DNA of 38,891 nucleotides from a virus (taxonomy: Duplodnaviria; Heunggongvirae; Uroviricota; Caudoviricetes): IMG/VR virus record IMGVR_UViG_2576861092_000011, positions 1 through 38,891 of that record; one strand, written 5' to 3'. The notes beneath the pieces are model-generated. The model made no database searches. It had not been told where the DNA came from and saw only the letters and a list, made by a program, of their open reading frames with translations. A program made the position numbers and the translations under genes. Below are positions 1-38,891 of this stretch, piece after piece (within the stretch, counting starts at the first letter, position 1; every line of letters begins with the position of its first letter).

Positions 1-1158
1 ATGCTCACCGTTAAGCAGATTGAAGCAGCTAAGCCGAAAGAAAAACCATACCGCCTTCTCGATGGTAATGGCCTGTACCTTTATGTCCCTGTATCCGGGA
101 AAAAGGTATGGCAGCTTCGCTACAAGATTGACGGTAAGGAGAAAATCCTGACCGTCGGAAAATATCCGCTTATGACTTTGCAGGAAGCAAGGGATAAAGC
201 ATGGACCGCGAGGAAAGACATCTCGGTTGGCATCGATCCGGTAAAGGCGAAAAAGGCTTCGTCTAACAACAATTCATTTAGTGCGATTTACAAGGAATGG
301 TACGAGCACAAGAAGCAAGTCTGGTCAGTAGGCTATGCAACTGAACTTGCAAAAATGTTTGATGCCGACATTTTACCTATCATCGGCGGCCTTGAAATTC
401 AGGATATTGAGCCGATGCAACTGCTGGAAGTAATCCGCAGATTTGAAGATCGCGGTGCAATGGAGCGAGCCAACAAAGCCCGCAGAAGATGCGGCGAGGT
501 TTTCCGTTACGCTATTGTCACTGGTAGGGCTAAATATAACCCGGCACCTGACCTTGCTGACGCCATGAAGGGATACCGCAAGAAGAACTTCCCGTTTTTA
601 CCTGCCGACCAGATCTCGGCATTCAACAAAGCACTTGCAACATTTTCAGGAAGTATCGTATCGCTCATTGCCACCAAGGTTTTACGCTACACTGCCCTAA
701 GAACGAAAGAGCTTCGTTCCATGCTATGGAAGAACGTCGATTTTGAAAACAGGATTATCACCATCGACGCCAGTGTGATGAAGGGACGCAAAATTCATGT
801 GGTCCCGATGTCAGACCAGGTGGTTGAACTTCTCACTACGCTAAGCTCAATCACCAAACCAGTCTCAGAGTTTGTTTTTGCCGGGCGCAACGATAAGAAG
901 AAGCCAATCTGCGAGAACGCGGTATTGCTTGTGATCAAACAAATCGGCTATGAAGGTCTGGAAAGCGGTCACGGATTCAGGCATGAATTCAGCACGATTA
1001 TGAACGAGCACGAATGGCCTGCCGACGCCATTGAAGTGCAACTGGCACATGCCAACGGCGGTTCTGTACGTGGAATTTACAACCATGCTCAGTATCTCGA
1101 TAAGCGCAGAGAAATGATGCAGTGGTGGGCGGACTGGCTTGATGAAAAGGGGGAGTAA
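1..1158 (+). CDS. intS: P4-type tyrosine integrase (prophage integrase), 385 aa
   Basis: Full-length ORF. N-terminus MLTVKQIEAAKPKEKPYRLLDGNGLYLYV is typical of P4-family integrases; C-terminal HGFRHEF and IYNHAQY carry the catalytic H-x-x-R and Tyr. Matches my recollection of E. coli K-12 KplE1 IntS. Window begins at its ATG. Confidence 0.9.
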   Translation: MLTVKQIEAAKPKEKPYRLLDGNGLYLYVPVSGKKVWQLRYKIDGKEKILTVGKYPLMTLQEARDKAWTARKDISVGIDPVKAKKASSNNNSFSAIYKEWYEHKKQVWSVGYATELAKMFDADILPIIGGLEIQDIEPMQLLEVIRRFEDRGAMERANKARRRCGEVFRYAIVTGRAKYNPAPDLADAMKGYRKKNFPFLPADQISAFNKALATFSGSIVSLIATKVLRYTALRTKELRSMLWKNVDFENRIITIDASVMKGRKIHVVPMSDQVVELLTTLSSITKPVSEFVFAGRNDKKKPICENAVLLVIKQIGYEGLESGHGFRHEFSTIMNEHEWPADAIEVQLAHANGGSVRGIYNHAQYLDKRREMMQWWADWLDEKGE

Positions 1159-1348
1159 TTGGCATAGCCACACTGGAAACAAAAGAAGTTAATCTCTCAA
1201 AATACCAAATGATCAAGTTATATGATAACAGGCGTGAAAATATACATAGAATGACAGTCAACCGCTAGATAACATCTAGTTAGTCTATATAGATAATATC
1301 AACTAAATCTGATAGACTCCCGCTTCCCGTAGAATATGGATTTTTAGC
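1159..1348 (+). promoter_or_regulatory. AT-rich int-oac intergenic region, putative oac promoter, with short palindromes (CTAGATaacATCTAG, TCTATATAGA)
   Basis: 190 bp non-coding AT-rich stretch directly upstream of oac start; palindromes read directly from the sequence. No promoter elements assigned. Confidence 0.3.
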
Positions 1349-2416
1349 ATGAAACATATACAATCTTTAGATGGTGTGAGAGGTATTGCGGTGCTCATTG
1401 TAATGCTTTTTCATGCCAAAGTTTCAGGATTTTCTCTTGGTTGGTCTGGAGTTCCGCTGTTCTTTTGCTTATCTGGTTTCTTAATTACCTCAATCCTTAT
1501 CGAGGATAAAGACTCTGGTTTTAGTAACTATATTAAACGATTTCTTATAAATAGATCGCTTAGAATATTCCCGTTATTTTATGCTTACCTACTTGTTAAC
1601 TTTATTCTTCTAATTGCAACTGGGAAACCAACGGATGGTTATTTGTGGTTTATAACTTATCTACAAAACTATTATATAGGAATAAATGTTACAACACCTG
1701 GAATTTTGGGGCACACCTGGTCTCTTGCAGTGGAAGAACAATTTTACTGGCTTTGGCCTCTATTCATATTTTTCATAAACAAAAAGAATATGAATCTGAT
1801 TTTTATCATACTAATAATAACATCAAGTATATCAAGATATTTTATATTTCAAATCACTGATGGAAACCCATACATTGTAAATGTAACTCTTATCAGTTGC
1901 ATTGACATGTTAGTTCTTGGTGCTCTGTTTTCAAAGATAAAAGATGATAAGTACGCATATGAATCAGGATTTTTAACTTTTATAGCAGGTGTTGGGCTGG
2001 TTCTTAATGGAATAAATTCTGTTGGTCTTAATGCTTTTTGGAACCCTGTAGATTGGGCTGGGAAATGCTGGTATATGTTTACAGCGTTTGGGATGATTTT
2101 TTCATCTGCAATTTTTTTCATTTACAAGTGGAGTGTGCTAGGGAAAAAACAAATAATAACAAAAGCATTATCATTAAAGCCATTAACATTTACAGGAAAG
2201 ATAAGTTATGGTTTGTATATGTGGCATTTGCTGTGTTTTTCAATTGCAAACAAAATGTCCTCCTTGTTTGGGGTAAACAATAATGCTGTGATAATAGCAT
2301 GTGGGTTTGCTATCGCATATATAGTATCAATTGCATCATACTATCTTTTTGAAATACATTTTCTTAAATTAAAAAGAAAAACCAATAGAAATGAAGACAA
2401 TTTAGTTACAGTATAA
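1349..2416 (+). CDS. oac: Acyltransferase-3 family integral membrane protein, probable O-antigen O-acetyltransferase (lysogenic conversion)
   Basis: 355 aa, multi-pass hydrophobic; N-terminal motif LDGVRGIAVLIVMLFH typical of OafA/Oac acyltransferases. Markedly AT-rich versus flanking phage DNA. Sits between int and tailspike as in Sf6. Confidence 0.8.
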   Translation: MKHIQSLDGVRGIAVLIVMLFHAKVSGFSLGWSGVPLFFCLSGFLITSILIEDKDSGFSNYIKRFLINRSLRIFPLFYAYLLVNFILLIATGKPTDGYLWFITYLQNYYIGINVTTPGILGHTWSLAVEEQFYWLWPLFIFFINKKNMNLIFIILIITSSISRYFIFQITDGNPYIVNVTLISCIDMLVLGALFSKIKDDKYAYESGFLTFIAGVGLVLNGINSVGLNAFWNPVDWAGKCWYMFTAFGMIFSSAIFFIYKWSVLGKKQIITKALSLKPLTFTGKISYGLYMWHLLCFSIANKMSSLFGVNNNAVIIACGFAIAYIVSIASYYLFEIHFLKLKRKTNRNEDNLVTV

Positions 2417-2447
2417 AAATAGGGCGGGGAAACCGCCCTATTTTTAT
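2416..2447. terminator. Bidirectional Rho-independent terminator between convergent oac and tailspike
   Basis: Stem AGGGCGG / CCGCCCT with loop GGAAA, flanked by an A-run on one side and a T-run on the other (aaaat-agggcggggaaaccgcccta-tttttat). Confidence 0.75.
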
Positions 2448-4159
2448 CTATCCTCTCTCCACGCCTGCACGAAACATGTAACATTGATGTTTGATACTCC
2501 ATTTCCTGTGGTTGTATCATACACTCGAGCAATGGCAGTTCCACTGCTATGGTAAGTGTCAAAGCTCACTGCGTACTTGAATGGTGATGGCATAGTATTG
2601 GAGTGAAAATCTGGAACCGCCATTGCATATCTTGCATAGAATCCAAAGTTAATTATGTCTCCAGATTTTAAAGTAAGAATGTTTGTATAGTTAGGGGAGT
2701 TTGATATCTTCTCGTCAACACGTATTAGCCTCCCATTACCTTGGATAGTAATTACTGTGAATATTCGATTTGGATCATTGAGATAAACAACAGCTTCATC
2801 ACTGATAATTAGGTGACCTATTGTGCCATCGTCGTTGTAGATTTGAGGGTCGTTTATACGTACTACAGCGTTACCCCTAACCCGGAACAGGTAGGCATTT
2901 GCCCCTGCAGCGTTAACCCTGTTGAATGTCGGGGAGTTAAATGTAACCTCAGAACTAGAGGCGACCACGATAGCCTGGCTTCCTGCTGTAATTTTCCCGT
3001 TTGCAACGTCCATTTCGAAGTTAGGTTGATTAAATATGATTCCTCTTGAGTTCGTATCTATCTGCAGGAAATAAGCATTGGCGGACCCGTTATGTCCCAT
3101 GTTAAGCGCGTTGAATATCTGGTTGCTAGCGCCAGAAACTTTCACGGCATAAGCCGTCCAGTTTGCAACATAACACCCATTGAACACGTTTTGAATAATT
3201 GTTCCGTTACTGGATAGGTTAATCCCGATTCGGTTGTTATTGCACCTCATATTGTTATAAATATTTGAAAAATCAGCATATCCAGCGTTGTAACCAATAT
3301 CAAAGAAATCGAGATAAAGGTTGTTAAACTCACAGTTAACTGCCTTTCCGCAAAAAGACATGTCTATTCCGACCCCGCTACCAACAGGAGGACCGCCAGC
3401 AACAGATCCGTTAACTTGGAGATTCATGTTTGATATAGTAATCCCTCTAACGTCAGAGCCCTCAGGCTTTATTCCGATCGTGTTTATAGGAACGTTAACA
3501 ACTGTTGATGTTATGGATTCACCAGTTATGCTAGTTTTATTTTTTAACTCAAAATTACCGCTCCATACTCCATTAGGCACCTTCAGTAGACCATTGGCCT
3601 CACCTGTGGCAACGGCAATGTTGACAGGGTTTACGTTTTCATTTGTCGCCCCGTAACCACGGATATCACCAATTCTCTGATAGTCATCAACAGATATAAA
3701 ATCATGCACTGTCCTTCCATCGGTAATGCCAACCATGGAAGAACCTATTGATGATGCAAGACGCTGCTCAAGCTGATCCGGGTCGTACTTCAGTACATTC
3801 GGAAAATAAAACTGCTGCGCACCGTACGCATCATAAACAGCCATAGAATGGCCTTGCACGGTAACGAATTTGGCAATCTGTCCATTATATACAGGGTAAC
3901 CAGCAGCGTTAATGATGATTGGTTGCGAAACAGGAACGTGAGAGCCGTCTTCGCTCTCCATATAAACCTGAATCTGGTTTTCAGGATTTACCGGATCAGT
4001 GTCAATTTTTCCTATATAAATTTTGCCATTGGCAACCGCTTTAAAAGAACGTGCCATAGTGAAGAGTTGCGAAGGCATGCTTACCACAACATTTGCAGTG
4101 ATATCTGACATTTCATTGCTCCAGACGAATGATATGATGCAACCATGATGTGATTGCAT
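2444..4159 (-). CDS. Tailspike protein: P22 gp9-like N-terminal head-binding domain plus distinct beta-helix receptor-binding/O-antigen-depolymerase domain
   Basis: N-terminal ~110 aa ([46 protein letters not shown]...[15 protein letters not shown]...NVLKYDPDQ) closely matches the P22 gp9 head-binding domain; the rest is Asn/Gly/Ser-rich repetitive sequence typical of right-handed beta-helix. 3' part is AT-rich. Confidence 0.9.
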
Positions 4160-4232
4160 ACCAAAATGGTACTATTGAGTATTTATCCAGTAGGTTACGA
4201 TGCCATTCCACCCAACTGGTGAGGCATCAAGG

Positions 4233-4628
4233 ATGTACAGCAAATACGACGAGGCGCAGTTTCACTTGAGACTTCCGCATGAACTCCACGCGAAAATTAA
4301 ACAGCGCGCGAAGATGAATAAGAGGTAGCTGAACTCAGAGATAATTGCAGCGATTAAAGAATCATTGGCTAAACAAAGCTCTGCATCAGTTTACATTGAC
4401 GATGCAGAGCGTATGGCAGAACAACAATATGATATGGTTAAGAAATTGTCTTTGATACGCTCAAGGAGCTATATAAAAAAGACAGCAGCTAACCATCAGT
4501 TACGGAGGATTTATGCAAAGAGATATGCTGAATATTGCGTTCTACATATTTGGTTTTTGCACGTTCCTGGTGTTTGCGAAGCTATTCTGACAACGCATCA
4601 GACTTGGCACCCTGAGTCATGGCGTTAA
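4233..4628 (+). pseudogene. mnt: mnt-like ribbon-helix-helix repressor gene interrupted by in-frame amber codon (TAG at 4326..4328)
   Basis: From ATG 4233: MYSKYDEAQFHLRLPHELHAKIKQRAKMNKR-TAG-LNSEIIAAIKESLAKQSSASVYIDDAERMAEQQYDMVKK aligns with P22 Mnt (..PHFNFRMPMEVREKLKFRAEANGRSMNSELLQIV..NDAERLADEQSELVKK) in one frame; the stop replaces the conserved Ser. C-terminal reading extends into the 3' end of the ejection gene on the other strand. Confidence 0.55.
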
Positions 4629-6579
4629 TGGCCTTTTGCGCCTGCTGCATCGCTTTCTCAAACGCTGTTGATCCGCGTGGGGTGTTTGCCAGTCGGAGCA
4701 TTGCATTTCTGAATGGTTCGCTCTCATAGGCGCGAGTAAGAAGTCCGTAGCTTACTGCTGCGCCAGTTGTCGCCGGGTTCATTGCTGTCCCATATCCGAT
4801 AATGAACGGGATGGTTTGCTGCCCTGTTGGTGTTGTTACTGCCGCTTTTGCAGCCTGCTGCGTGGATTGCAGGTAGTTTTTCAATCCTTTCAGATAAGCA
4901 GCGTCCTGCCCCTTAAATGTGATGCCAGTCTGGTTTTGCAGGATGTTAAGCTGCCGAAGGAACTGGTCAGGGGATCCGCCAGATTTCTCCATCGCCTTTC
5001 CAATGATGCCATTGCGCATTTGCGCCCTGCCAACACGACCAACTGAGTTATACAGCGTCTTAATTTCCGATTTGTTCTTGCTGAATAGCATGTTGTTGAC
5101 AACTTCCGGCGTCAGGTCGCCTTTCATGAGAACATTCTTCAGCCTGGTATTCTTTAGTTTCGCCGCTTCGTCAGCGTAGACGGCATTGGCTTGCTGATAT
5201 TTACGGAGAGTATCGTTGCCAAGATTCTGACCAATGGCACCATTGATATCGTCAGTCATTGCCTTGTAAACGCGCTGAATGGCAGCATCGGAACGGTTTG
5301 GTAACACTGGTCGCTCACCCTTCACGTCCATTCTGAACTGGCTGCGCAGGTCGCTTAATTGCTTCAAATCCAGATTTACAGGACCATCAGGGCCAGCATT
5401 GCGAACAAGCTCATCACGATATGACTGAAGTTTTGAAATAGTCTCGTTATCAGCAACCTTACCAAGCTTCTGCAGGTTAGATATTTCTGTATCAATCTGC
5501 TGAATTGCTCGCGCAGGCTGAATGTTTACTCCAGCCATAGCATTCTGAACCTGTTCCAGTCGATTACCGGCGGCACGACGAATTCCTGATGTTTTCGCTT
5601 TAAGGCTGTCAATAACAACCGCTGGATCATACTCACCGAATTTATCAGCAAATCTCTGCACCAACTGGCTTCTCGCTTCCTGTTGCGTTGCTCTCATTCC
5701 GCTTGTGCCAGCCAGAGGGATATTTTCTGCTGTAGTCTGCGCCATTTTCCCGACGCGGGAGGTTGGTTGTAACAGGTCTGTGGTGTGCAGAGGAACTCCT
5801 TCACGCTCTGCAAATCTGATAGCCTGCTGCGCTTCTGGCGCGATAGCACCACGAACGCCACGATAAGTAGCACCTAATCCACGTCCGGCAGCGTTAATAG
5901 CACCGCCAGCAAGTACACCAACTCCTAAATCGGTGGCGAGTGCTTCCGCATCATCTTTCGCACTATTTGCAGCAAGTGATCCAACTGCGTTTTCTGCTAG
6001 AAGGCGAGTTGCCCCCTGAGCAATTCGACCAGCAAGTGTTGGTGCCTGTGCTGCCGCTCTCTCAACGCCAGCAGGAGTGAGGTAAGGCAATGCTTCAGCA
6101 AATACCCTTCCCTCTGTCGTTTGTGGAGTCAGCGCTCCTTGCTGAAGGCCAAAGTCCTGCTCTAATCCCTGCGTTGTTACTCGTGGCGCTGGTTGATATG
6201 TACCATCGCCAATACCGAGTTTACCGCCAGCCCATGCCGCCGCGCTTGTTACAGCATCGGCAACTGATGCAGGTATGTTTGCCACGTTCACGCCAGCCTG
6301 CACCAGTCCGCGACCAGTCTCTTTTACTGCTTCACCAAGATCAGACATAAATCCACTTTGCTGTGGTTGTTGCTGTGCTACTGGTTGTTGTGTCTCCACT
6401 GGCTGCACAGATGGCAATGGATAGGCAGCATAGAAAGCTTGCTTAGCCTGCTCTGCATTTTCTCCGGCTTGCGGGGCCACGACTTCATTGAAGTATTGCT
6501 CCTGAGCCTGCGCTTTTTGTTCTGGTGCTAACGCCTGATACTGTGGAGAGGCGATAACATCTTTCCATGCTTTAGCCAT
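4582..6579 (-). CDS. DNA ejection (pilot) protein, P22 gp16-like
   Basis: 665 aa; position immediately after gp20-like gene in the conserved P22 order 14-7-20-16; Ala/Gln-rich low-complexity composition typical of ejection proteins. Confidence 0.75.
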   Translation of the reverse strand: MAKAWKDVIASPQYQALAPEQKAQAQEQYFNEVVAPQAGENAEQAKQAFYAAYPLPSVQPVETQQPVAQQQPQQSGFMSDLGEAVKETGRGLVQAGVNVANIPASVADAVTSAAAWAGGKLGIGDGTYQPAPRVTTQGLEQDFGLQQGALTPQTTEGRVFAEALPYLTPAGVERAAAQAPTLAGRIAQGATRLLAENAVGSLAANSAKDDAEALATDLGVGVLAGGAINAAGRGLGATYRGVRGAIAPEAQQAIRFAEREGVPLHTTDLLQPTSRVGKMAQTTAENIPLAGTSGMRATQQEARSQLVQRFADKFGEYDPAVVIDSLKAKTSGIRRAAGNRLEQVQNAMAGVNIQPARAIQQIDTEISNLQKLGKVADNETISKLQSYRDELVRNAGPDGPVNLDLKQLSDLRSQFRMDVKGERPVLPNRSDAAIQRVYKAMTDDINGAIGQNLGNDTLRKYQQANAVYADEAAKLKNTRLKNVLMKGDLTPEVVNNMLFSKNKSEIKTLYNSVGRVGRAQMRNGIIGKAMEKSGGSPDQFLRQLNILQNQTGITFKGQDAAYLKGLKNYLQSTQQAAKAAVTTPTGQQTIPFIIGYGTAMNPATTGAAVSYGLLTRAYESEPFRNAMLRLANTPRGSTAFEKAMQQAQKAINAMTQGAKSDALSE

Positions 6580-7973
6580 TAATCACCCCATAGTGAAGAA
6601 AAGTTACTGCTGGCTGCTGGCTGTGATACCTGTGCAGGTTGAGATTGCTGCCGCTGAGATTTACCAACATTAACGTTATATTGTTGGTTGTAATTGTTGG
6701 TGTATTCCTGAATCTCACGAATCGACTGCTGCATAGCCTCCGGGCTTGAATAGTCAACCTGCGGCATCCCCTGAAAATACATCTTCGCTTCTGCAACGGT
6801 GTTAATACCACTGGCCCCCATGTCCCTTGCTGCCGCCACACCCTGATTCTGCATTCTGCCCTGAATACGCTGTGCTGAGTTATATAACTGGCGCTGCTCT
6901 TTTCCTGTTAATCGGCTGCGAACATCAGCACCAATTGCCGGGTTACCTGCGCCGCCGGTCATTCCTGTCATGAAATCGAGAGCAGAAGCGTCTGCATTTG
7001 CGATCGCGTCGATATCCTTCTTCATGGCATAGTTTTGTGCTGATGCAGACGATGTTGCAGGCGCTGCGATTGAACTGGCAGGAACGCGAACCATATTCCC
7101 CTCGTTGTCGACGCCTTCGTAGAACGCATTTGCCCCAGCGCCGTGAAGTTTCCCGCCAACCGTTACAGTTCTGCCATCTGATAACTGAACTGTACGCTCA
7201 TCATTCCCAGTGGTTCCTCTTGTTGACGCTCGCTGCATTGCCAAATCCTGCCCGCGTCGCGCAGTAGAAGCAGATAAATCCTGACCGCGCATCGTGATGT
7301 TCTGACCTCGTGCTGTTAGCGCCTCGCCAGCCTGATTGCTGCGGATTGTCTCTGCAAGTTTTCCGCGATCAATCTCACGCCCAACGATTCTGTCTTGCGC
7401 CTGAAAATATTGTTCTGGACCAAGTGCAGCCATTCCAAGGTGATCAACAAACTCTGTGAAACCTTGTGGATTTTGCTGATACATTTTCGCCACATCCAGA
7501 GGGTCTACTCCGGCACGAGTAAGCTCAGATGAGTTGTTCTGCAACCATGACATCATGGCTTCTGGAGATGAAGCTGCCAGTCTGGCACTTGCTGCCAGTG
7601 TGCCGACAGTGGAACGCTGGTCTTCATCGACAAATTTCATGCCGTTTCTTACAGCGTCAAACTGCTCAGGATACTGTGATGCCAGTTTTCGCATTGCATC
7701 GCGGTCACCAGATGTATATGCATCAGCATAAGCCTGCTGAAACTCTTGCTGTCGCTTCTGCTGATCCATCTGCTTATACATATCCATGACAGATGAAATG
7801 CCCTGCAAAGCCTGCAAGCCAACGTTATTACGTCCTGAACGCTCCATCTCGTTATTCTGTCGAATGTATGCAAGCGTGGCGTCTGCATCACTTGCTCTCG
7901 GAGCGTTGGAGTTCATGCCGCCTAACCCGGCAAGAAGCGCGCCTGAATTACCAGCCTGTTGCCATGTAGCCAA
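6579..7973 (-). CDS. DNA ejection protein, P22 gp20-like
   Basis: 464 aa (P22 gp20 is about 470 aa); synteny; start overlaps stop of upstream gene. Confidence 0.75.
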
Positions 7974-29236: not shown

Positions 29237-29953
29237 ATGGAAAATAAAAAATCACTGACGACAGAACAGCTCGAAGACGCTAAGCGGCTTAAGGCTTTGT
29301 ATGAGTCAAAAAAGAAAGAATTGGGAATAACCCAATACTCAATCGCTGATGAACTGGGTATCACCCAAGGAGCGGTAGGGCATTATCTTAATGGCAGAAA
29401 CGCGCTAAATGTTGAGGTCGCATCTGGTTTTGCACGTTTGTTGCAAGTCTCAATTGCTGATTTTAGCCAGTCAATTGCTGCCAAGGTTGCAGAACAGGCA
29501 GAAAGCCTTAAGAGCGATGCCAACGTAAGGTATGCAGGGGAATACAGAGCAGGAAAGAGGTATCCGGTGTTAAGCAGTATCCAGGCTGGCTCGTGGTGTG
29601 AAGCATGCGAACCATACACCATTAAAGACATAGATGTTTGGCTTGAGTCTGACGCGCATATTCAAGGTAATGCGTTTTGGCTTAAAGTGGAAGGTGATTC
29701 AATGACGGCACCGGTTGGGTTAAGCATTCCAGAGGGAACATTCGTTCTTTTCGATACCGGAAGGGAGGCGATCAACGGCAGCTTGGTCATAGCAAAACTT
29801 TCTGACTCTAACGAAGCAACATTCAAGAAGCTGATAATCGACGGCGGAAATAAATACCTCAAGGGACTTAATCCTGCATGGCCTCTCGTGCCAATCAATG
29901 GAAACTGCAAGATTATAGGCGTTGCAATTGAGACAAAACTCAGACTGGTTTGA
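29237..29953 (+). CDS. cI: CI repressor (HTH plus S24 LexA-like autopeptidase domain)
   Basis: 238 aa; N-terminus similar to lambda CI (..LTTEQLEDAKRLKALYESKKKELGITQ..); C-terminal ..AFWLKVEGDSMTAP.. and ..FKKLI.. match the S24 Ser/Lys peptidase signature. Confidence 0.9.
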   Translation: MENKKSLTTEQLEDAKRLKALYESKKKELGITQYSIADELGITQGAVGHYLNGRNALNVEVASGFARLLQVSIADFSQSIAAKVAEQAESLKSDANVRYAGEYRAGKRYPVLSSIQAGSWCEACEPYTIKDIDVWLESDAHIQGNAFWLKVEGDSMTAPVGLSIPEGTFVLFDTGREAINGSLVIAKLSDSNEATFKKLIIDGGNKYLKGLNPAWPLVPINGNCKIIGVAIETKLRLV

Positions 29954-29971: not shown

Positions 29972-30340
29972 ATGGTTGGAACCGCTATAGCAAGCTTTTT
30001 GGGGATGTTGGCAATCTCAACAATTTACGGCTTAGCGCATGCTTTTATTGCGAAATCTCTATCAGAAAAAATAAGCCAGGCTTGGGCGCATAGATCAGCT
30101 CGTTTCATGATTCTAGTTGTCATAGCAATACAAGGGATATCTGCATTTATCCTCTATGGATCAAGCTTATACCTATTGTATCAAGGCGCGACATTTACGC
30201 CTTACACCAGTGATTACGGAACTCTATACGATGGTAGTGAAGACATCACTGTGGCTTGGATCGTCTTTGGTTTATCTATGGCCGTGTCTGTTGTAGCAGA
30301 CATCATTAAGGTAATTCTCGTCTTAACCTTCGCTGACTAA
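29972..30340 (+). CDS. Small integral membrane protein co-transcribed with cI (rex/sie position); candidate superinfection-exclusion or abortive-infection factor
   Basis: 122 aa with 3-4 predicted hydrophobic helices; strong RBS AGGGGG; 18 bp after cI stop on the same strand. Confidence 0.6.
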   Translation: MVGTAIASFLGMLAISTIYGLAHAFIAKSLSEKISQAWAHRSARFMILVVIAIQGISAFILYGSSLYLLYQGATFTPYTSDYGTLYDGSEDITVAWIVFGLSMAVSVVADIIKVILVLTFAD

Positions 30341-30427
30341 CCTATAATCCCGGCAGCAATAGCTATCGGGATCCACTTCACATATCCCGCATAAAAAGCA
30401 CTGAACAAGCAGACACCGAAAAAAATA

Positions 30428-30512
30428 AATATCCTTTGTATTCATTTGCTTATCATTATTTCACCAAAAATAAATACCTTGGGTATTTACACAATAAAAT
30501 ACCTACAGTATT
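30428..30512. promoter_or_regulatory. OL operator region (PL): AATAC-N5-GTATT sites
   Basis: AATACcttggGTATT (30473..30487), AATACctacaGTATT (30498..30512), weaker AATATccttttGTATT (30428..30442); same half-sites as OR. Confidence 0.55.
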
Positions 30513-30560
30513 CTTTAGCCATCAGCAGGACGCTGGAAGCCAAACGGAACAGATTGGCAG

Positions 30561-30600
30561 GCTCTTTAACATTGATGGGATTGTCCCGCCGAAATGCGGG
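30561..30600 (+). promoter_or_regulatory. nutL: boxA (GCTCTTTAACA) and boxB hairpin (CCCGCCGAAATGCGGG)
   Basis: Upstream of N on the plus strand; same boxA/boxB as nutR. Confidence 0.65.
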
Positions 30601-30708
30601 AACCAAAGAGTAGTTGGCTTTGGGGTGACGTGAAGTGCAGCTGCACGACGGCAACCGGAAGATAAGCACCCGGCGCGTCACCGCCAAAGTCAATCATCGG
30701 AGGTCAAC

Positions 30709-31008
30709 ATGACAGTAGTCATTACATATCTGGCTGACGATAACGCCAGAAATCGCCGCAGAGCACGCAGACAGGCTCAACGTGAACAGGCAATGCAAGA
30801 ACAGCGACTGGCGCGAAAAATTGCGCTAAAGCTCTCTGGTTGCGTCAGAGCAGATAAAGCAGCATCACTCGGAAGCCTTCGCTGCAAGAAGGCAGAAGAA
30901 GTCGAGAGTAAACAGAATCGTATTTACTACCGCAAGCCACGCAGTGAAATGGGTGTGACTTGTGTTGGTCGCCAGAAAATGAAATTAGGCAGCAAACCAC
31001 TTATTTGA
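30709..31008 (+). CDS. N: N-like transcription antiterminator
   Basis: 99 aa; N-terminal arginine-rich motif (DDNARNRRRARRQAQREQA); C-terminus ..NRIYYRKPRSEMGVTCVGRQKMKLGSKPLI resembles lambda N C-terminus. Confidence 0.8.
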   Translation: MTVVITYLADDNARNRRRARRQAQREQAMQEQRLARKIALKLSGCVRADKAASLGSLRCKKAEEVESKQNRIYYRKPRSEMGVTCVGRQKMKLGSKPLI

Positions 31009-31016
31009 GGTGAGAT

Positions 31017-31175
31017 ATGAACATGAATGTATCTTTAACAAAATCATTGCTTGCCAGTCGTGGATTAAAGATGAAACCAACAAAAAGTTATAAAAACGGC
31101 AGTCGATGCTACTCAGTTTCAGGATGGAGCGGAGAGTACACAATCAAAGGTATTTTGTGGCAGTTAGGATTTTGA
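31017..31175 (+). CDS. Small hypothetical early protein (52 aa)
   Basis: Below ORF-track cutoff; ATG preceded by GAGGTGA RBS; first of three tandem small ORFs after N. Confidence 0.4.
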   Translation: MNMNVSLTKSLLASRGLKMKPTKSYKNGSRCYSVSGWSGEYTIKGILWQLGF

Positions 31176-31208
31176 TGATTCTTTTGGCAGCAAGACACAG
31201 AGGTGAAT

Positions 31209-31343
31209 ATGAACGCAGTTGAGTTTACAAAATGGATGGCAGAGCAAGATATCACAGGAGCCGACGAAAAGGCTGTGTACTACATGGCTATGCTATGGAT
31301 TCACAAAGCAAAAGAGGCTGCAAATGCTCTTGGAGGTGAGTGA
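31209..31343 (+). CDS. Small hypothetical early protein (44 aa)
   Basis: ATG preceded by identical GAGGTGA RBS; stop overlaps start of next ORF by 1 nt. Confidence 0.4.
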   Translation: MNAVEFTKWMAEQDITGADEKAVYYMAMLWIHKAKEAANALGGE

Positions 31344-31531
31344 TGAAAGTAAAAATAACTGCTTCTAATACCAGTTTTGTAAGTGTTGGTGATATTACAG
31401 AAGTAATAACAAATCATGATGGAACACAAGTTATGTGGTCTGATTTCTGTAAAAGATATGAGCGAGTTAGTTGGTGTAAACTCGTATGGGGCGTCGAATA
31501 CGAAGAATTACCTGAAATGCATGACGAATAA
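31343..31531 (+). CDS. Small hypothetical early protein (62 aa)
   Basis: ATG 31343 with GGAGGTGA RBS; translationally coupled to upstream ORF. Confidence 0.5.
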   Translation: MKVKITASNTSFVSVGDITEVITNHDGTQVMWSDFCKRYERVSWCKLVWGVEYEELPEMHDE

Positions 31532-31626
31532 GCACTGTGTATTCATTCCAACGAGTGAATACACGGAGCAATGTCGCTCGTAACTAAACAGGAGCCGACT
31601 TGTTCTGATTATTGGAAATCTTCTTT

Positions 31627-31652
31627 GCCCTCCAGTGTGAGGGCTTTTTTAT
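31627..31652 (+). terminator. Rho-independent terminator within the PL operon
   Basis: GCCCTCcagtgtgAGGGC followed by TTTTTTAT. Confidence 0.6.
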
Positions 31653-31716
31653 ATGCATACCAATAACGCTTCACTCGAGGCGTTTTCGTTATGCAATCAA
31701 ACAGAAGGAGCATCCT

Positions 31717-31887
31717 ATGCAACAGTTCGCTATTGCAGGGGCGGCATCGGTTCGCCCTTTCAACCCGATTTTATCGGTACAGCATTCACGAAAAAATATT
31801 TTAACCGGAGCAGACTTTAAACAACCAAGAATGAAAAGTTTGCTCGAAAAGCTTTGGGATATTTTGAAACAACAAGGCCGTCCATGA
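31717..31887 (+). CDS. cIII: CIII-like protein (putative FtsH inhibitor), 56 aa
   Basis: MQQFAIAG.. vs lambda CIII MQYAIAGW..; central amphipathic helix KSLLEKLWDILKQ resembles the CIII core; AGGAG RBS. The longer 91-aa track ORF would run through the terminator and is rejected. Confidence 0.55.
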   Translation: MQQFAIAGAASVRPFNPILSVQHSRKNILTGADFKQPRMKSLLEKLWDILKQQGRP

Positions 31888-31968
31888 GTTTTACAGATAA
31901 CTGGTCAGACGAAGAATTCATTCGTCAGATGAACAAAATGCTCAATCAGCACAAAGAACAGGAGAAAG

Positions 31969-32280
31969 ATGATGATTCTGACTCTGAATGATAAGCGTGA
32001 AATATCGCAAATAATCGCAAGTTTTACTGATGAAGATTACGAACGAATCAACAGTGAAGTTGATCGCCTCTGCAAACGTTGCGACCCAATAAGCGAAATG
32101 CTTCGCTCATATAAACCAGATGAACACACTAAGGACGCTATCGACTGGCTGGAAGATGATGACTGTAACTATCAGGAAAAAGCCGCTGAATGGTTCTGGG
32201 ATGCAATAACCGAAAGAGTTAAGGCTGAATATGCCTTCGCAATATTCAAACGCAGACACATTTTTGGAGAAGCAGCATGA
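31969..32280 (+). CDS. Hypothetical acidic protein (103 aa) immediately upstream of recT; positional analogue of anti-RecBCD genes
   Basis: AGGAG RBS; ATGA overlap with recT start. Function inferred from position only. Confidence 0.5.
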   Translation: MMILTLNDKREISQIIASFTDEDYERINSEVDRLCKRCDPISEMLRSYKPDEHTKDAIDWLEDDDCNYQEKAAEWFWDAITERVKAEYAFAIFKRRHIFGEAA

Positions 32281-33179
32281 GCAATATCGTTGAATTCGTT
32301 AAACAGCAGGAGCAGTTATTCTGCGGAGCATTGACTGAACAGACGGTGACATGGGCTAAGGAAAGCCAGTTTGCAATTCAGTATTTCCAGAAAAACGATT
32401 ACCTGGCTAAAACGGCACTGGCAAATCCAACCAGCGCACAGAACGCCATCATCAATGTTGCGGCGATCGGCATCACCTTAAATCCTGCCAGCAAACTGGC
32501 TTATCTGGTTCCGCGCGACGGCATGGTGTGCCTTGATATCAGCTATATGGGATTGCTACATATTGCAATGGAGTCTGGTGTTATCTCATGGGGTCAGGCA
32601 AAACTTGTTCATGCTAACGATACCTATGAGTCAAACGGGCTTGATAAAGCACCAACCCATAAATACAACGCCTTCGGTGATCGTGGTGATATCGTTGGCG
32701 TTTACTGCACAGTTAAGACGCCAGCAGGTGATTATCTAACGGAAGAGATGAGTCTGGCTGAAATTGAGGCTGTAAGGAAAACAAGCAAGGCAGCATTCAG
32801 CGATAAAGGACCATGGGTAAATCACTGGAATGAGATGGCGCGAAAGACGGTCGTAAAGCGTGCAAGCAAGTATTGGCCTAAGGCATCACGTCTTGATAGT
32901 GCTATTCACGTACTAAACGAAGAAGAAGGTGTATGGACTGAACCAGTTATGCCGCACAAATCAGAGGAAGATATCCGCGAAGATGAACGGAAACTCCAGC
33001 AGGAAATAACGGATAAAGCACAACTTCTTTGTGATGAAATGGCTCAGGCAGAAAACATGGATGATTTGAAGCGATATTTTGCAGAAGCATATCGCCTGAC
33101 ATCTGGAATGAAATTGCAGCAGAACGTACAAGCCATTTACATAGAATGCAAAGCGAAACTGGAGGTTGCCAGTGAGTAA
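32277..33179 (+). CDS. recT: RecT-family single-strand annealing recombinase
   Basis: 300 aa; ..KGPWVNHWNEMARKTVVKRASKYWP.. matches the conserved RecT motif (NGPWVTHWEEMAKKTAIRRLFKYLP in Rac RecT). Confidence 0.85.
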   Translation: MSNIVEFVKQQEQLFCGALTEQTVTWAKESQFAIQYFQKNDYLAKTALANPTSAQNAIINVAAIGITLNPASKLAYLVPRDGMVCLDISYMGLLHIAMESGVISWGQAKLVHANDTYESNGLDKAPTHKYNAFGDRGDIVGVYCTVKTPAGDYLTEEMSLAEIEAVRKTSKAAFSDKGPWVNHWNEMARKTVVKRASKYWPKASRLDSAIHVLNEEEGVWTEPVMPHKSEEDIREDERKLQQEITDKAQLLCDEMAQAENMDDLKRYFAEAYRLTSGMKLQQNVQAIYIECKAKLEVASE

Positions 33180-33654
33180 ACTGTATGAAATTGCCAATGA
33201 ATACGCAAAATTGATGGATTCAGATTTAGAGCCAGAGATGATTGCTGACACAATAGAAGGCATGGAAGGAGAATTTACCGATAAAATAGAGCAACTTCTC
33301 GCCATTATTAAAAATGAATCTGGTTATGCTGAACGCCTCAAGGAAGAGGCAAAGTCACTAAATGAGCGAGCCGCAGTAATTCAAAATAAGATTGACAGCA
33401 TTATGGCGTATATAGCGTCATCGCTTGAAATGGTTGGCAAGAAAAAGATTAGAGCAGGTATTCACCAGGTAACAATCCGCAAAACGTCAGAAACTGTAGA
33501 AATCATCGACTCAAGCGCCCTTCCTCCTGAATACGTTGAGTTCGAAACAACAATTAAAGCCGACAAGTTGGCAATCAAGCACCAACTAAAAGCAGGAATA
33601 AATATCCCCGGCGCTCAACTCAAGGTTGGGAAACCTTCACTTCTTATCAAATAA
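33172..33654 (+). CDS. Sipho_Gp157-family protein (partner of RecT-type recombinases)
   Basis: 160 aa from a GTG start with GGAGG RBS; N-terminal acidic helix, central coiled coil, C-terminal beta-rich ..PPEYVEF....KADKLAIKHQLKAGINIPGAQL.. fits my recollection of the Gp157 family. Confidence 0.55.
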   Translation: MSKLYEIANEYAKLMDSDLEPEMIADTIEGMEGEFTDKIEQLLAIIKNESGYAERLKEEAKSLNERAAVIQNKIDSIMAYIASSLEMVGKKKIRAGIHQVTIRKTSETVEIIDSSALPPEYVEFETTIKADKLAIKHQLKAGINIPGAQLKVGKPSLLIK

Positions 33655-37643: not shown

Positions 37644-38891
37644 CTATATTGCTGAAGGTACAGGCGTTTCCATAACTATTTGCTCGCGTTTTTTACTCAA
37701 GAAGAAAATGCCAAATAGCAACATCAGGCAGACAATACCCGAAATTGCGAAGAAAACTGTCTGGTAGCCTGCGTGGTCAAAGAGTATCCCAGTCGGCGTT
37801 GAAAGCAGCACAATCCCAAGCGAACTGGCAATTTGAAAACCAATCAGAAAGATCGTCGACGACAGGCGCTTATCAAAGTTTGCCACGCTGTATTTGAAGA
37901 CGGATATGACACAAAGTGGAACCTCAATGGCATGTAACAACTTCACTAATGAAATAATCCAGGGGTTAACGAACAGCGCGCAGGAAAGGATACGCAACGC
38001 CATAATCACAACTCCGATAAGTAATGCATTTTTTGGCCCTACCCGATTCACAAAGAAAGGAATAATCGCCATGCACAGCGCTTCGAGTACCACCTGGAAT
38101 GAGTTGAGATAACCATACAGGCGCGTTCCTACATCGTGTGATTCGAATAAACCTGCATAAAAGACAGGAAAAAGTTGTTGATCAAAAATGTTATAGAAAG
38201 ACCACGTCCCCACAATAAATATGACGAAAACCCAGAAGTTTCGATCCTTGAAAACTGCGATAAAATCCTCTTTTTTTACCCCTCCCGCATCTGCCGCTAC
38301 GCACTGGTGATCCTTATCTTTAAAACGCATGTTGATCATCATAAATACAGCGCCAAATAGCGAGACCAACCAGAAGTTGATATGGGGACTGATACTAAAA
38401 AATATGCCGGCAAAGAACGCGCCAATAGCATAGCCAAAAGATCCCCAGGCGCGCGCTGTTCCATATTCGAAATGAAAATTTCGCGCCATTTTTTCGGTGA
38501 AGCTATCAAGCAAACCGCATCCCGCCAGATACCCCAAGCCAAAAAATAGCGCCCCCAGAATTAGACCTACAGAAAAATTGCTTTGCAGTAACGGTTCATA
38601 AACGTAAATCATAAACGGTCCGGTCAAGACCAGGATGAAACTCATACACCAGATGAGCGGTTTCTTCAGACCGAGTTTATCCTGAACGATGCCGTAGAAC
38701 ATCATAAATAGAATGCTGGTAAACTGGTTGACCGAATAAAGTGTACCTAATTCCGTCCCTGTCAACCCTAGATGTCCTTTCAGCCAAATAGCGTATAACG
38801 ACCACCACAGCGACCAGGAAATAAAAAAGAGAAATGAGTAACTGGATGCAAAACGATAGTACGCATTTCTGAATGGAATATTCAGTGCCAT
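37644..38891 (-). CDS. cscB: Sucrose:H+ symporter (LacY-family oligosaccharide permease), host gene
   Basis: 415 aa, 12-TM MFS pattern; matches my recollection of E. coli CscB (MALNIPFRNAYYRFASSYSFLFFISWSLWWSLYAIWLKG...). Window ends at its start codon. Confidence 0.85.
   Translation of the reverse strand: MALNIPFRNAYYRFASSYSFLFFISWSLWWSLYAIWLKGHLGLTGTELGTLYSVNQFTSILFMMFYGIVQDKLGLKKPLIWCMSFILVLTGPFMIYVYEPLLQSNFSVGLILGALFFGLGYLAGCGLLDSFTEKMARNFHFEYGTARAWGSFGYAIGAFFAGIFFSISPHINFWLVSLFGAVFMMINMRFKDKDHQCVAADAGGVKKEDFIAVFKDRNFWVFVIFIVGTWSFYNIFDQQLFPVFYAGLFESHDVGTRLYGYLNSFQVVLEALCMAIIPFFVNRVGPKNALLIGVVIMALRILSCALFVNPWIISLVKLLHAIEVPLCVISVFKYSVANFDKRLSSTIFLIGFQIASSLGIVLLSTPTGILFDHAGYQTVFFAISGIVCLMLLFGIFFLSKKREQIVMETPVPSAI

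Follow-up and report, generated by a model that had tools for sequence, protein, structure and literature searches.

A tailspike receptor domain and a putative O-antigen acetyltransferase as a probable exchangeable module of a P22-like Escherichia coli prophage

Introduction

The DNA analysed here is a stretch of 38,891 nucleotides from a tailed phage of the class Caudoviricetes (IMG/VR record IMGVR_UViG_2576861092_000011, positions 1 to 38,891; hereafter the window), in which an integrase gene is followed by two convergent genes, one encoding a putative O-antigen O-acetyltransferase of the acyltransferase-3 (AT3) family and the other a tailspike. The question raised by this locus is whether the two genes are neighbors only because of where they lie, or whether they constitute one exchangeable unit that sets both the receptor recognized by the virion and the modification made to that receptor by the lysogen. 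We consider it likely that the second description is correct, namely that the pair is an exchangeable receptor and receptor-masking unit of a P22-like prophage integrated at argW, built like that of phage Sf6 and serving serotype conversion and superinfection exclusion. The coordinates of the features discussed are collected in Table 1.

Results

The receptor-domain and acyltransferase genes recur as a block in a different type of prophage

The closest cross-genus copy of the locus was found in a Trabulsiella odontotermitis prophage (JNGI01000178.1, here L003, which matches the IMG/VR contig L013). By blastn, positions 1341-3670 of the window aligned with positions 11037-8706 of this prophage at 69.7% DNA identity. 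When the block was divided into segments, the identity was 68.5% for the acyltransferase gene, 65.5% for the intergenic terminator, whose stem is kept, and 69.7% for the receptor domain of the tailspike, while outside the block it dropped to the background level (37-39% for the flanking segments, with 37% upstream of 1341 and ~40% past about 3700). The corresponding protein identities were 79% for the receptor domain and 73% for the acyltransferase. The L003 prophage encodes a terminase of the T7 type and an SLT-domain internal protein, and its receptor domain is joined to the N-terminal domain of a T7-type tail fibre (PF03906). The acyltransferase orthologue is convergent with the fibre gene and follows it, in a slot between the tail fibre and the holin, and the pair is located not beside an integrase gene but between the T7-type terminase and the lysis genes. 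The same pair is also carried by a second P22-like phage, L002, with a tailspike that is 85% and an acyltransferase that is 70% identical to those of the window.

Since the segments show equal divergence and the borders at 1341 and 3670 are sharp, we regard the block as one unit with a common history. The initial annotation of the window, which was made from its sequence alone, had proposed a horizontally exchanged unit of receptor domain and modifying enzyme; the proposal is supported by this comparative evidence and not by the GC content of the tailspike gene, on which it had partly been based. A more far-reaching proposal, which we regard as possible and offer tentatively, is that the receptor domain, the terminator and the acyltransferase gene form a self-contained "receptor/anti-receptor" cassette that travels undivided between temperate phages of unrelated types and between genera (here a P22-like podovirus of E. 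coli and a T7-type-fibre prophage of Trabulsiella) and recombines within the tailspike gene at the anchor/receptor junction; beside closely related receptor domains gtrABC could replace the anti-receptor half at the terminator, and the same O-antigen would then be masked by two different chemistries.

Receptor-domain relatives are followed by O-antigen-type modification genes in nine of eleven loci or locus groups

An O-antigen-type modification module, counted as an AT3 gene or gtrABC, either intact or decayed, was located just downstream of the receptor domain in nine of the 11 distinct loci or locus groups of the receptor-domain family. In L017, the receptor domain (72% identity) precedes gtrABC, and DNA homology to the window ends exactly at the tailspike stop codon. 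The Enterobacter cancerogenus loci L014 and L018-L020 (61-65%) also have gtrABC downstream, the P22-like L004 (61%) has gtrAB together with a different GtrC-sized gene, and L021-L023 of E. coli (52%) have decayed gtr genes. A distant AT3 gene lies near the receptor domain in L015 and in L027 and L028 of Morganella (41-43%), and nothing was found downstream in L005 (58%). The other half of the pair was also found in different company: in L007-L009 an acyltransferase with 57% identity occupies the same int-proximal slot, and the receptor part of the neighboring tailspike gave no tblastn match to that of the window. The gtrABC genes are known as O-antigen glucosylation systems, and of the indirect arguments for O-antigen as the receptor, their partnership with relatives of the receptor domain is the best one. 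These comparisons place recombination junctions at three points: between anchor and receptor domain in the tailspike (aa ~115-148), at the terminator and where the modification gene begins.

Morganella morganii H1r carries three copies (L027, L028 and L029) of the 41-43% receptor-domain relative, each at a contig end, and two of the three have the distant AT3 gene within about 2.5 kb. A scan of the genome contigs returned these three Morganella copies only.

The acyltransferase is an AT3-only membrane protein

The Pfam family PF01757 (Acyl_transf_3) covers the acyltransferase end to end (positions 2-325 of the 326 of the model; E 4.5e-25; 88.8 bits against a cut-off of 31), and the protein matches phrog_3333, annotated "O-acetyltransferase" (E 1.3e-39). 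No second Pfam domain was detected, thus there is no fused SGNH domain. When 20 homologues including Sf6 Oac were compared, the invariant residues were R11-X10-H22, FFxxSG at 38-43, R69-x-x-R72, E129 and S286-Y-G288. The functionally essential motifs of AT3 proteins are R/K-X10-H in the first transmembrane segment and RXXR in the first cytoplasmic loop (PMC9558356); both catalytic motifs are present here, as R-X10-H and an RXXR that reads R69-S-L-R72. The AlphaFold model is all-helical (pLDDT 88.6, pTM 0.88), and the protein has about 9-10 hydrophobic segments. Neither a sequence search nor a fold search (at E<=0.001) of the PDB yielded a match; the highest-probability fold match, human HGSNAT with acetyl-CoA (8vlg; probability 0.57, E 0.33, TM 0.32), was non-significant, and to our knowledge no solved AT3 structure is available for comparison. 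In NCBIfam the only match, to SucT, was sub-threshold, scoring 24 bits where the cut-off is 1275. By analogy, the chemistry of the enzyme would be O-antigen acetylation.

An otherwise identical prophage (L012; gene at 6360-7425) has a +T frameshift in this gene at the window-equivalent position 1666, and the 90% cluster of the protein (P0121) includes many short members of 83-266 aa, a part of which come from contigs as long as 35-497 kb; because of these, the gene seems to have been inactivated repeatedly. Slipped-strand phase variation was considered as an explanation and dropped, as the +T of L012, the one frameshift examined, lies outside a homopolymer run. Further relatives of the acyltransferase are found in Rouxiella, where the gene stands alone in the chromosome, and in an Enterobacter prophage remnant. 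The Rouxiella sp. relative (L024, 7001-8077; 56% identity) is situated between rhomboid (glpG-like) and rhodanese (glpE-like) genes, beside mal genes, and no phage genes were called up to 7 kb on either side of it.

The tailspike combines a P22-type anchor with a rare receptor domain

The maximal open reading frame (ORF) of the tailspike spans 2444-4159 on the minus strand, and its start had initially been placed at 4159. We corrected the start to the ATG at 4111, since this codon is preceded by a GGAG ribosome-binding site, gives the N-terminus MSDITAN as in P22 gp9 and Sf6 gp14 and a protein of 555 aa, and agrees with the public gene call P0001. The head-binding family PF09008 matched aa 2-114 (E 2.7e-66), in line with the earlier description of the first ~110 codons as P22 gp9-like. 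The best PDB matches of this anchor were Sf6 gp14 (7sg7, E 9e-64) and P22 (8tvr, E 7e-50), and at the DNA level the anchor region alone was 85-95% identical to IME10, Sf101, HK620 and many E. coli prophages. The alignments to the P22 and Sf6 tailspikes end at about residue 125-140; beyond the anchor there was no PDB sequence match, and homology to the P22 endorhamnosidase was not supported, which agrees with the claim that the receptor part is unrelated in sequence to that of P22.

The AlphaFold model of aa 114-555, computed as a monomer, showed a right-handed parallel beta-helix followed by a C-terminal beta-sandwich (pLDDT 89.3), and its Foldseek neighbors at E of about 5e-6 were the tailspikes of Sf6 and CBA120 (TSP2) and Klebsiella depolymerases. 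The beta-helix domain probably cleaves a host surface polysaccharide, i.e., acts as a depolymerase. A tblastn search of 50,697 phage records with the beta-helix core gave no match even at E<=5, and with the whole receptor domain only the last ~80 aa matched, to Dickeya Limestone-type tailspikes. This segment (aa ~472-552; window 2444-2690) is 39% identical to the C-termini of the LIMEstone1, PP35 and XF4 tailspikes, and this small C-terminal module seems to move between tailspikes independently of the beta-helix. The receptor-domain family is small, with 23 representative clusters among 1.84 billion proteins, and its members are joined to a variety of anchors (P22 head-binding, TSP1/Gp66-type, T7 tail-fibre, tail-collar and endosialidase-type N-terminal domains). 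E366, in an FEMD motif, is the sole acidic residue shared by all 25 members of the family alignment; that it is catalytic would be a guess.

A shared terminator and a candidate promoter flank the acyltransferase gene

Direct folding revealed a strong hairpin at 2410-2449, with -24.0 kcal/mol (z -6.8) on one strand and -25.2 kcal/mol (z -6.1) on the other, and none of 200 shuffled sequences was as stable. The hairpin overlaps both stop codons (TAA 2414-2416 on the plus strand and TAA 2446-2444 on the minus strand), as expected from the initial annotation, according to which the two genes share a bidirectional terminator. Its GGGCGG...CCGCCC stem is kept in L002, L003 and L001, a public E. coli contig that is 97.8% identical to the window. 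A scan with a terminator consensus missed this hairpin, probably because the stem absorbs the T-run. A further hairpin, GGGGCCTATATGGCCCC, lies between the tailspike and the gtr genes in L004 (7655-7700) and is nearly identical to the terminator between oac and the tailspike gene of Sf6, GGGGCCATATGGCCCC (L006, 2944-2959). The two hairpins are alike despite different flanking genes, and terminators may serve as recombination joints.

Upstream of the acyltransferase gene, the AT-rich spacer contains a candidate extended -10 element of 9 nt, TGATAGACT, at 1310-1318, with a possible -35 element TAGATA at 1290-1295. This was the only match to TGATAGACT in the window, and a generic promoter scan of the window showed no excess over shuffled sequences. 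At the same place upstream of the orthologous acyltransferase genes, TGATAGACT aligns in L002 and TGATAAACT in L003, and the spacer around the element is otherwise at background identity (~40%) in these comparisons. That the element is conserved upstream of all three genes and the rest of the spacer is not suggests that the acyltransferase gene has an autonomous promoter at TGATAGACT. Considered as a moron, the gene has its own terminator, a deviant composition and a candidate promoter at the conserved TGATAGACT.

The low GC content of the acyltransferase gene is due mostly to codon choice

The GC content of the window was 47.4%, and that of 1068-bp windows averaged 47.5% (standard deviation, 3.9). 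At 31.9% GC, the acyltransferase gene is the lowest among all 1068-bp windows of the sequence, which bears out its initial description as conspicuously AT-rich, and its GC content at third codon positions (GC3) was 26% as compared with 44-54% in neighboring genes. For the tailspike gene, the claim that its 3' two-thirds is AT-rich stood only in part: the reduction is real but small (42.0% for aa 115-555, the 7th percentile of same-size windows), and it is the same as in the P22-like 5' third (aa 1-114, 43.3%). Because the receptor part, the anchor part and the next 467 bp (41.1%) are similar, the GC content of the tailspike gene does not mark the domain boundary.

The effects of amino acids and codons were separated by re-encoding the proteins with the codon frequencies found in 20 core genes of the prophage. 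The acyltransferase gene had an expected GC content of 41.4% and an observed one of about 32.0%, a deficit of 9.4 points that equals about 5.5 standard deviations of the observed-minus-expected spread of the core genes. The receptor part of the tailspike gene (expected 45.9%, observed 42.1%) and its anchor part (expected 45.9%, observed 43.3%) deviated by -3.8 points (about 2.2 standard deviations) and -2.6 points, respectively. Most of the GC deficit of the acyltransferase gene is therefore due to codon choice. The Trabulsiella orthologue has 33% GC inside a locus of 53-56% GC. Overall, the composition of the acyltransferase gene points to a foreign origin, and we counted it in favor of horizontal acquisition.

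Prophage setting and distribution of the locus

In L001, the element adjoins tRNA-Arg (argW), yfdC and mlaA, and the flanking DNA matches, at 100% identity, E. coli chromosomes in which these three genes are annotated. The backbone matched the Lederbergviruses IME10, E212 and Kapi1 at 94-96% identity over about half of its length; in the comparison with IME10, HK620, Kapi1 and Sf101, matches of this level spanned 45-60% of the virion and replication genes. Judged from these matches, the element is a temperate P22-like (Lederbergvirus-type) E. coli prophage with tRNA argW as its site. When positions 1100-4400 were searched by megablast, only the integrase edge and the 5' third of the tailspike gene found matches, and the cargo between them never did in the 50,697 phage records; a search of 5,426 complete E. 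coli genomes likewise gave the two edges and not the cargo. The cargo does occur in draft genomes of E. coli and E. albertii, and copies were also seen in several prophages of E. coli and in three contigs of IMG/VR; the 355-aa acyltransferase is encoded by about 86 contig-bearing genomes of the two species.

Table 1. Features of the integrase-proximal region, with positions in the window
Feature	Position	Strand	Basis or details
Tyrosine integrase	1..1158	+	385 aa; Pfam PF00589, PF22022, PF13356; marks the int-proximal prophage end
AT-rich spacer upstream of the acyltransferase gene	1159..1348	+	34.2% GC; candidate promoter
Block shared with the Trabulsiella T7-type-fibre prophage: acyltransferase gene, terminator, tailspike stop to codon ~148	1341..3670	both	blastn
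Acyltransferase-3 (AT3-only) integral membrane protein, putative O-antigen O-acetyltransferase	1349..2416	+	PF01757; 355 aa
Bidirectional intrinsic terminator	2410..2449	both	15-bp main stem, GGGCGG/CCGCCC core, 5-nt loop, flanking A5/T5
Tailspike aa 115-555: linker, right-handed parallel beta-helix receptor-binding (probably depolymerase) domain, C-terminal beta-sandwich	2444..3769	-	
Tailspike aa 1-114: P22 gp9-type head-binding (virion anchor) domain	3770..4111	-	PF09008

Three further observations concern the remainder of the window. The last ORF (37644-38891, minus strand) encodes a sugar/proton symporter of the LacY family (PF01306, E 1e-193) and is probably host chromosome; the csc sucrose locus adjoins argW. 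If this ORF is host DNA, the prophage ends on the right before about 37.6 kb, and part of the window lies outside it. Another region of reduced GC content, milder than the first, is located at 30001-33500 (38.6-39.8% in three 500-bp windows), downstream of an S24/HTH repressor gene (29237-29953) and ahead of RecT and Gp157 genes, and holds four small ORFs that have no Pfam matches. Between the tailspike gene and a gp16 homologue, a broken Arc/Mnt-type ribbon-helix-helix gene (4233-4493, plus strand) was found. Compared with the intact 86-aa gene in the near-identical L001 (5619-5879), it is interrupted by a TAA stop (4326-4328) and lacks 1 nt at 4442, and no antirepressor gene lies beside it.

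Discussion

According to the reading that we prefer, the tailspike is attached to the virion via its P22-type N-terminal domain, and the beta-helix domain would bind, and probably cleave, a host surface polysaccharide, most likely O-antigen. In the lysogen, the acyltransferase gene would probably be transcribed from its own promoter, with transcription ended by the shared terminator, and the enzyme, as its family suggests, would move acetyl groups from cytoplasmic acetyl-CoA to O-antigen in the periplasm. By analogy with Sf6 Oac, we infer that acetylation would keep the tailspike of the same prophage from binding or cutting the O-antigen. The lysogen would thereby change its serotype and exclude superinfecting phages that share the specificity, and fewer progeny would be lost on lysogen debris.

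Several points weigh against this reading. The similarity between the acyltransferase and Sf6 Oac is limited to 29% identity over 85 N-terminal residues (BLASTP E 1e-4). Truncated and frameshifted alleles of the acyltransferase gene occur, and the gene is consequently dispensable. The two modules also shuffle separately, as seen in L017 with gtrABC, in L007 with a 57% acyltransferase beside an unmatched receptor part and in L005 with no modification gene. The fold of the tailspike does not discriminate among a hydrolase, a lyase and a mere binder. Finally, AT3-only proteins also modify enterobacterial common antigen (ECA), exopolysaccharides and other glycans (PMC9558356).

Three other explanations were weighed against the preferred reading. 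The two genes may be adjacent and yet uncoupled: the gap between tailspike and integrase genes would simply be the usual moron slot at the end of the late operon, and the enzyme could help the host through antigenic variation or defence against other phages and leave the tailspike of its own phage unaffected. Sister prophages indeed carry other cargo there (gtr genes in L004, nothing in L005 and the 57% relative in L007-L009), seroconversion genes generally lie near int-att (PMC8787464), and relatives of the acyltransferase occur alone in the Rouxiella chromosome and in the Enterobacter prophage remnant. This explanation is unlikely, since in L003 the pair has stayed together, its terminator conserved and its two halves equally diverged, although the prophage is of a different type and the slot is not int-adjacent, and since a modification module lies downstream in nine of the 11 receptor-domain loci or groups, whatever the phage backbone. 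An explanation based on composition, in which the low GC content merely reflects a membrane protein rich in Ile, Leu, Phe, Asn and Lys and not a foreign origin, has in its favor that 34% of the residues are Ile, Leu or Phe and that the amino acids alone lower the expected GC content from 47% to 41.4%. It is nevertheless contradicted by the codon re-encoding, as the remaining deficit and the low GC3 are in excess of that effect, and the gene and its orthologues are found in unrelated phage backbones with sharp homology borders; we find this explanation barely credible.

The third explanation concerns the identity of the polymer, as the receptor could be a capsule or exopolysaccharide (K antigen or colanic acid) or ECA, and the acyltransferase would then modify that polymer; the fold of the tailspike does not separate O-antigen from capsule specificity. 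A precedent is the P22-like phage CUS-3, whose tailspike, an endosialidase of the K1 capsule, has an O-acetyltransferase of the capsule as its partner. Several of the top structural neighbors are capsule depolymerases from Acinetobacter and Klebsiella phages, the range of AT3-only substrates mentioned above is compatible with it, and the best PHROG that reaches the beta-helix is phrog_8280, "tail spike protein with colanic acid degradation activity" (E 4.9e-108, aa 1-469). However, this label is an inherited one, and about 286 of its 364 bits are reached by anchor-only families; the O-antigen tailspikes CBA120 TSP2 and Sf6 are equally good structural neighbors, and receptor-domain relatives of 52-72% identity precede gtrABC genes. 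A receptor of this kind is therefore quite improbable.

If the O-antigen reading is correct, one E. coli O-antigen is both recognized and altered by this prophage. The serotype of a lysogen, whether chemical or defined by antibodies, would then differ from the prediction made from its O-antigen gene cluster, and the lysogen would resist phages of the same specificity, which bears on genome-based serotyping and on the choice of phages or tailspikes as diagnostics or therapeutics. Because the receptor domain is rare and absent from the deposited phage genomes searched, it is a candidate reagent for an O-antigen outside the coverage of known tailspikes. Its recurrence with the acyltransferase in another phage type would also provide a clean natural example of the co-transfer of a receptor and its mask.

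Comparison with known systems

The combination of receptor recognition and receptor conversion has been a textbook principle since Sf6, P22 and epsilon15. The closest counterpart in layout is Sf6, in which int (gene 16), oac (gene 15), a terminator and the tailspike gene (gene 14) have the same order and strands and the same int/attP-proximal site at argW. Both phages have a hairpin terminator between the convergent genes and a tailspike made of a P22-type head-binding domain followed by a beta-helix, and the two acyltransferases (333 aa in Sf6, 355 aa here) are AT3-only proteins with the invariant R-X10-H, FFxxSG and RXXR motifs in common. In Sf6, acetylation blocks the phage endorhamnosidase and confers superinfection immunity (PMC9558356). 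The differences lie in the sequences themselves. Judged by its limited alignment, the acyltransferase of the window is not an orthologue of Sf6 Oac, and Sf6 was not among the best 25 of the 75 phage records matched by the acyltransferase in tblastn; the receptor domains share only a generic fold (12-14% identity, Foldseek E ~5e-6), the GC content is 31.9% here and 41.8% in Sf6 oac, and the host is E. coli instead of Shigella flexneri.

In P22, epsilon34 and the BTP1-type gtrABC phages, the modification module is likewise convergent with the tailspike gene and directly downstream of it, and a gtrABC-type module occupies this place in the receptor-domain relatives L004, L014, L017 and L018; there, a three-gene system glucosylates, whereas here a single AT3 protein is predicted to acetylate. 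Among the E. coli Lederbergviruses, IME10, HK620, Kapi1 and Sf101 share the N-terminal 114 codons of the tailspike at 85-95% identity, and Kapi1 shares the argW integration site and is likewise an O-antigen-modifying phage (PMC8787464). Neither the receptor domain nor the acyltransferase of the window was found in any of the 50,697 phage records. The arrangement of int, acetylase and tailspike genes has been described before (PMC10408124, PMC8787464). What is new here is modest: the sequences, i.e., a rare receptor domain and a divergent AT3 enzyme set in a known Sf6/P22-type layout, and the conservation of the block across phage types.

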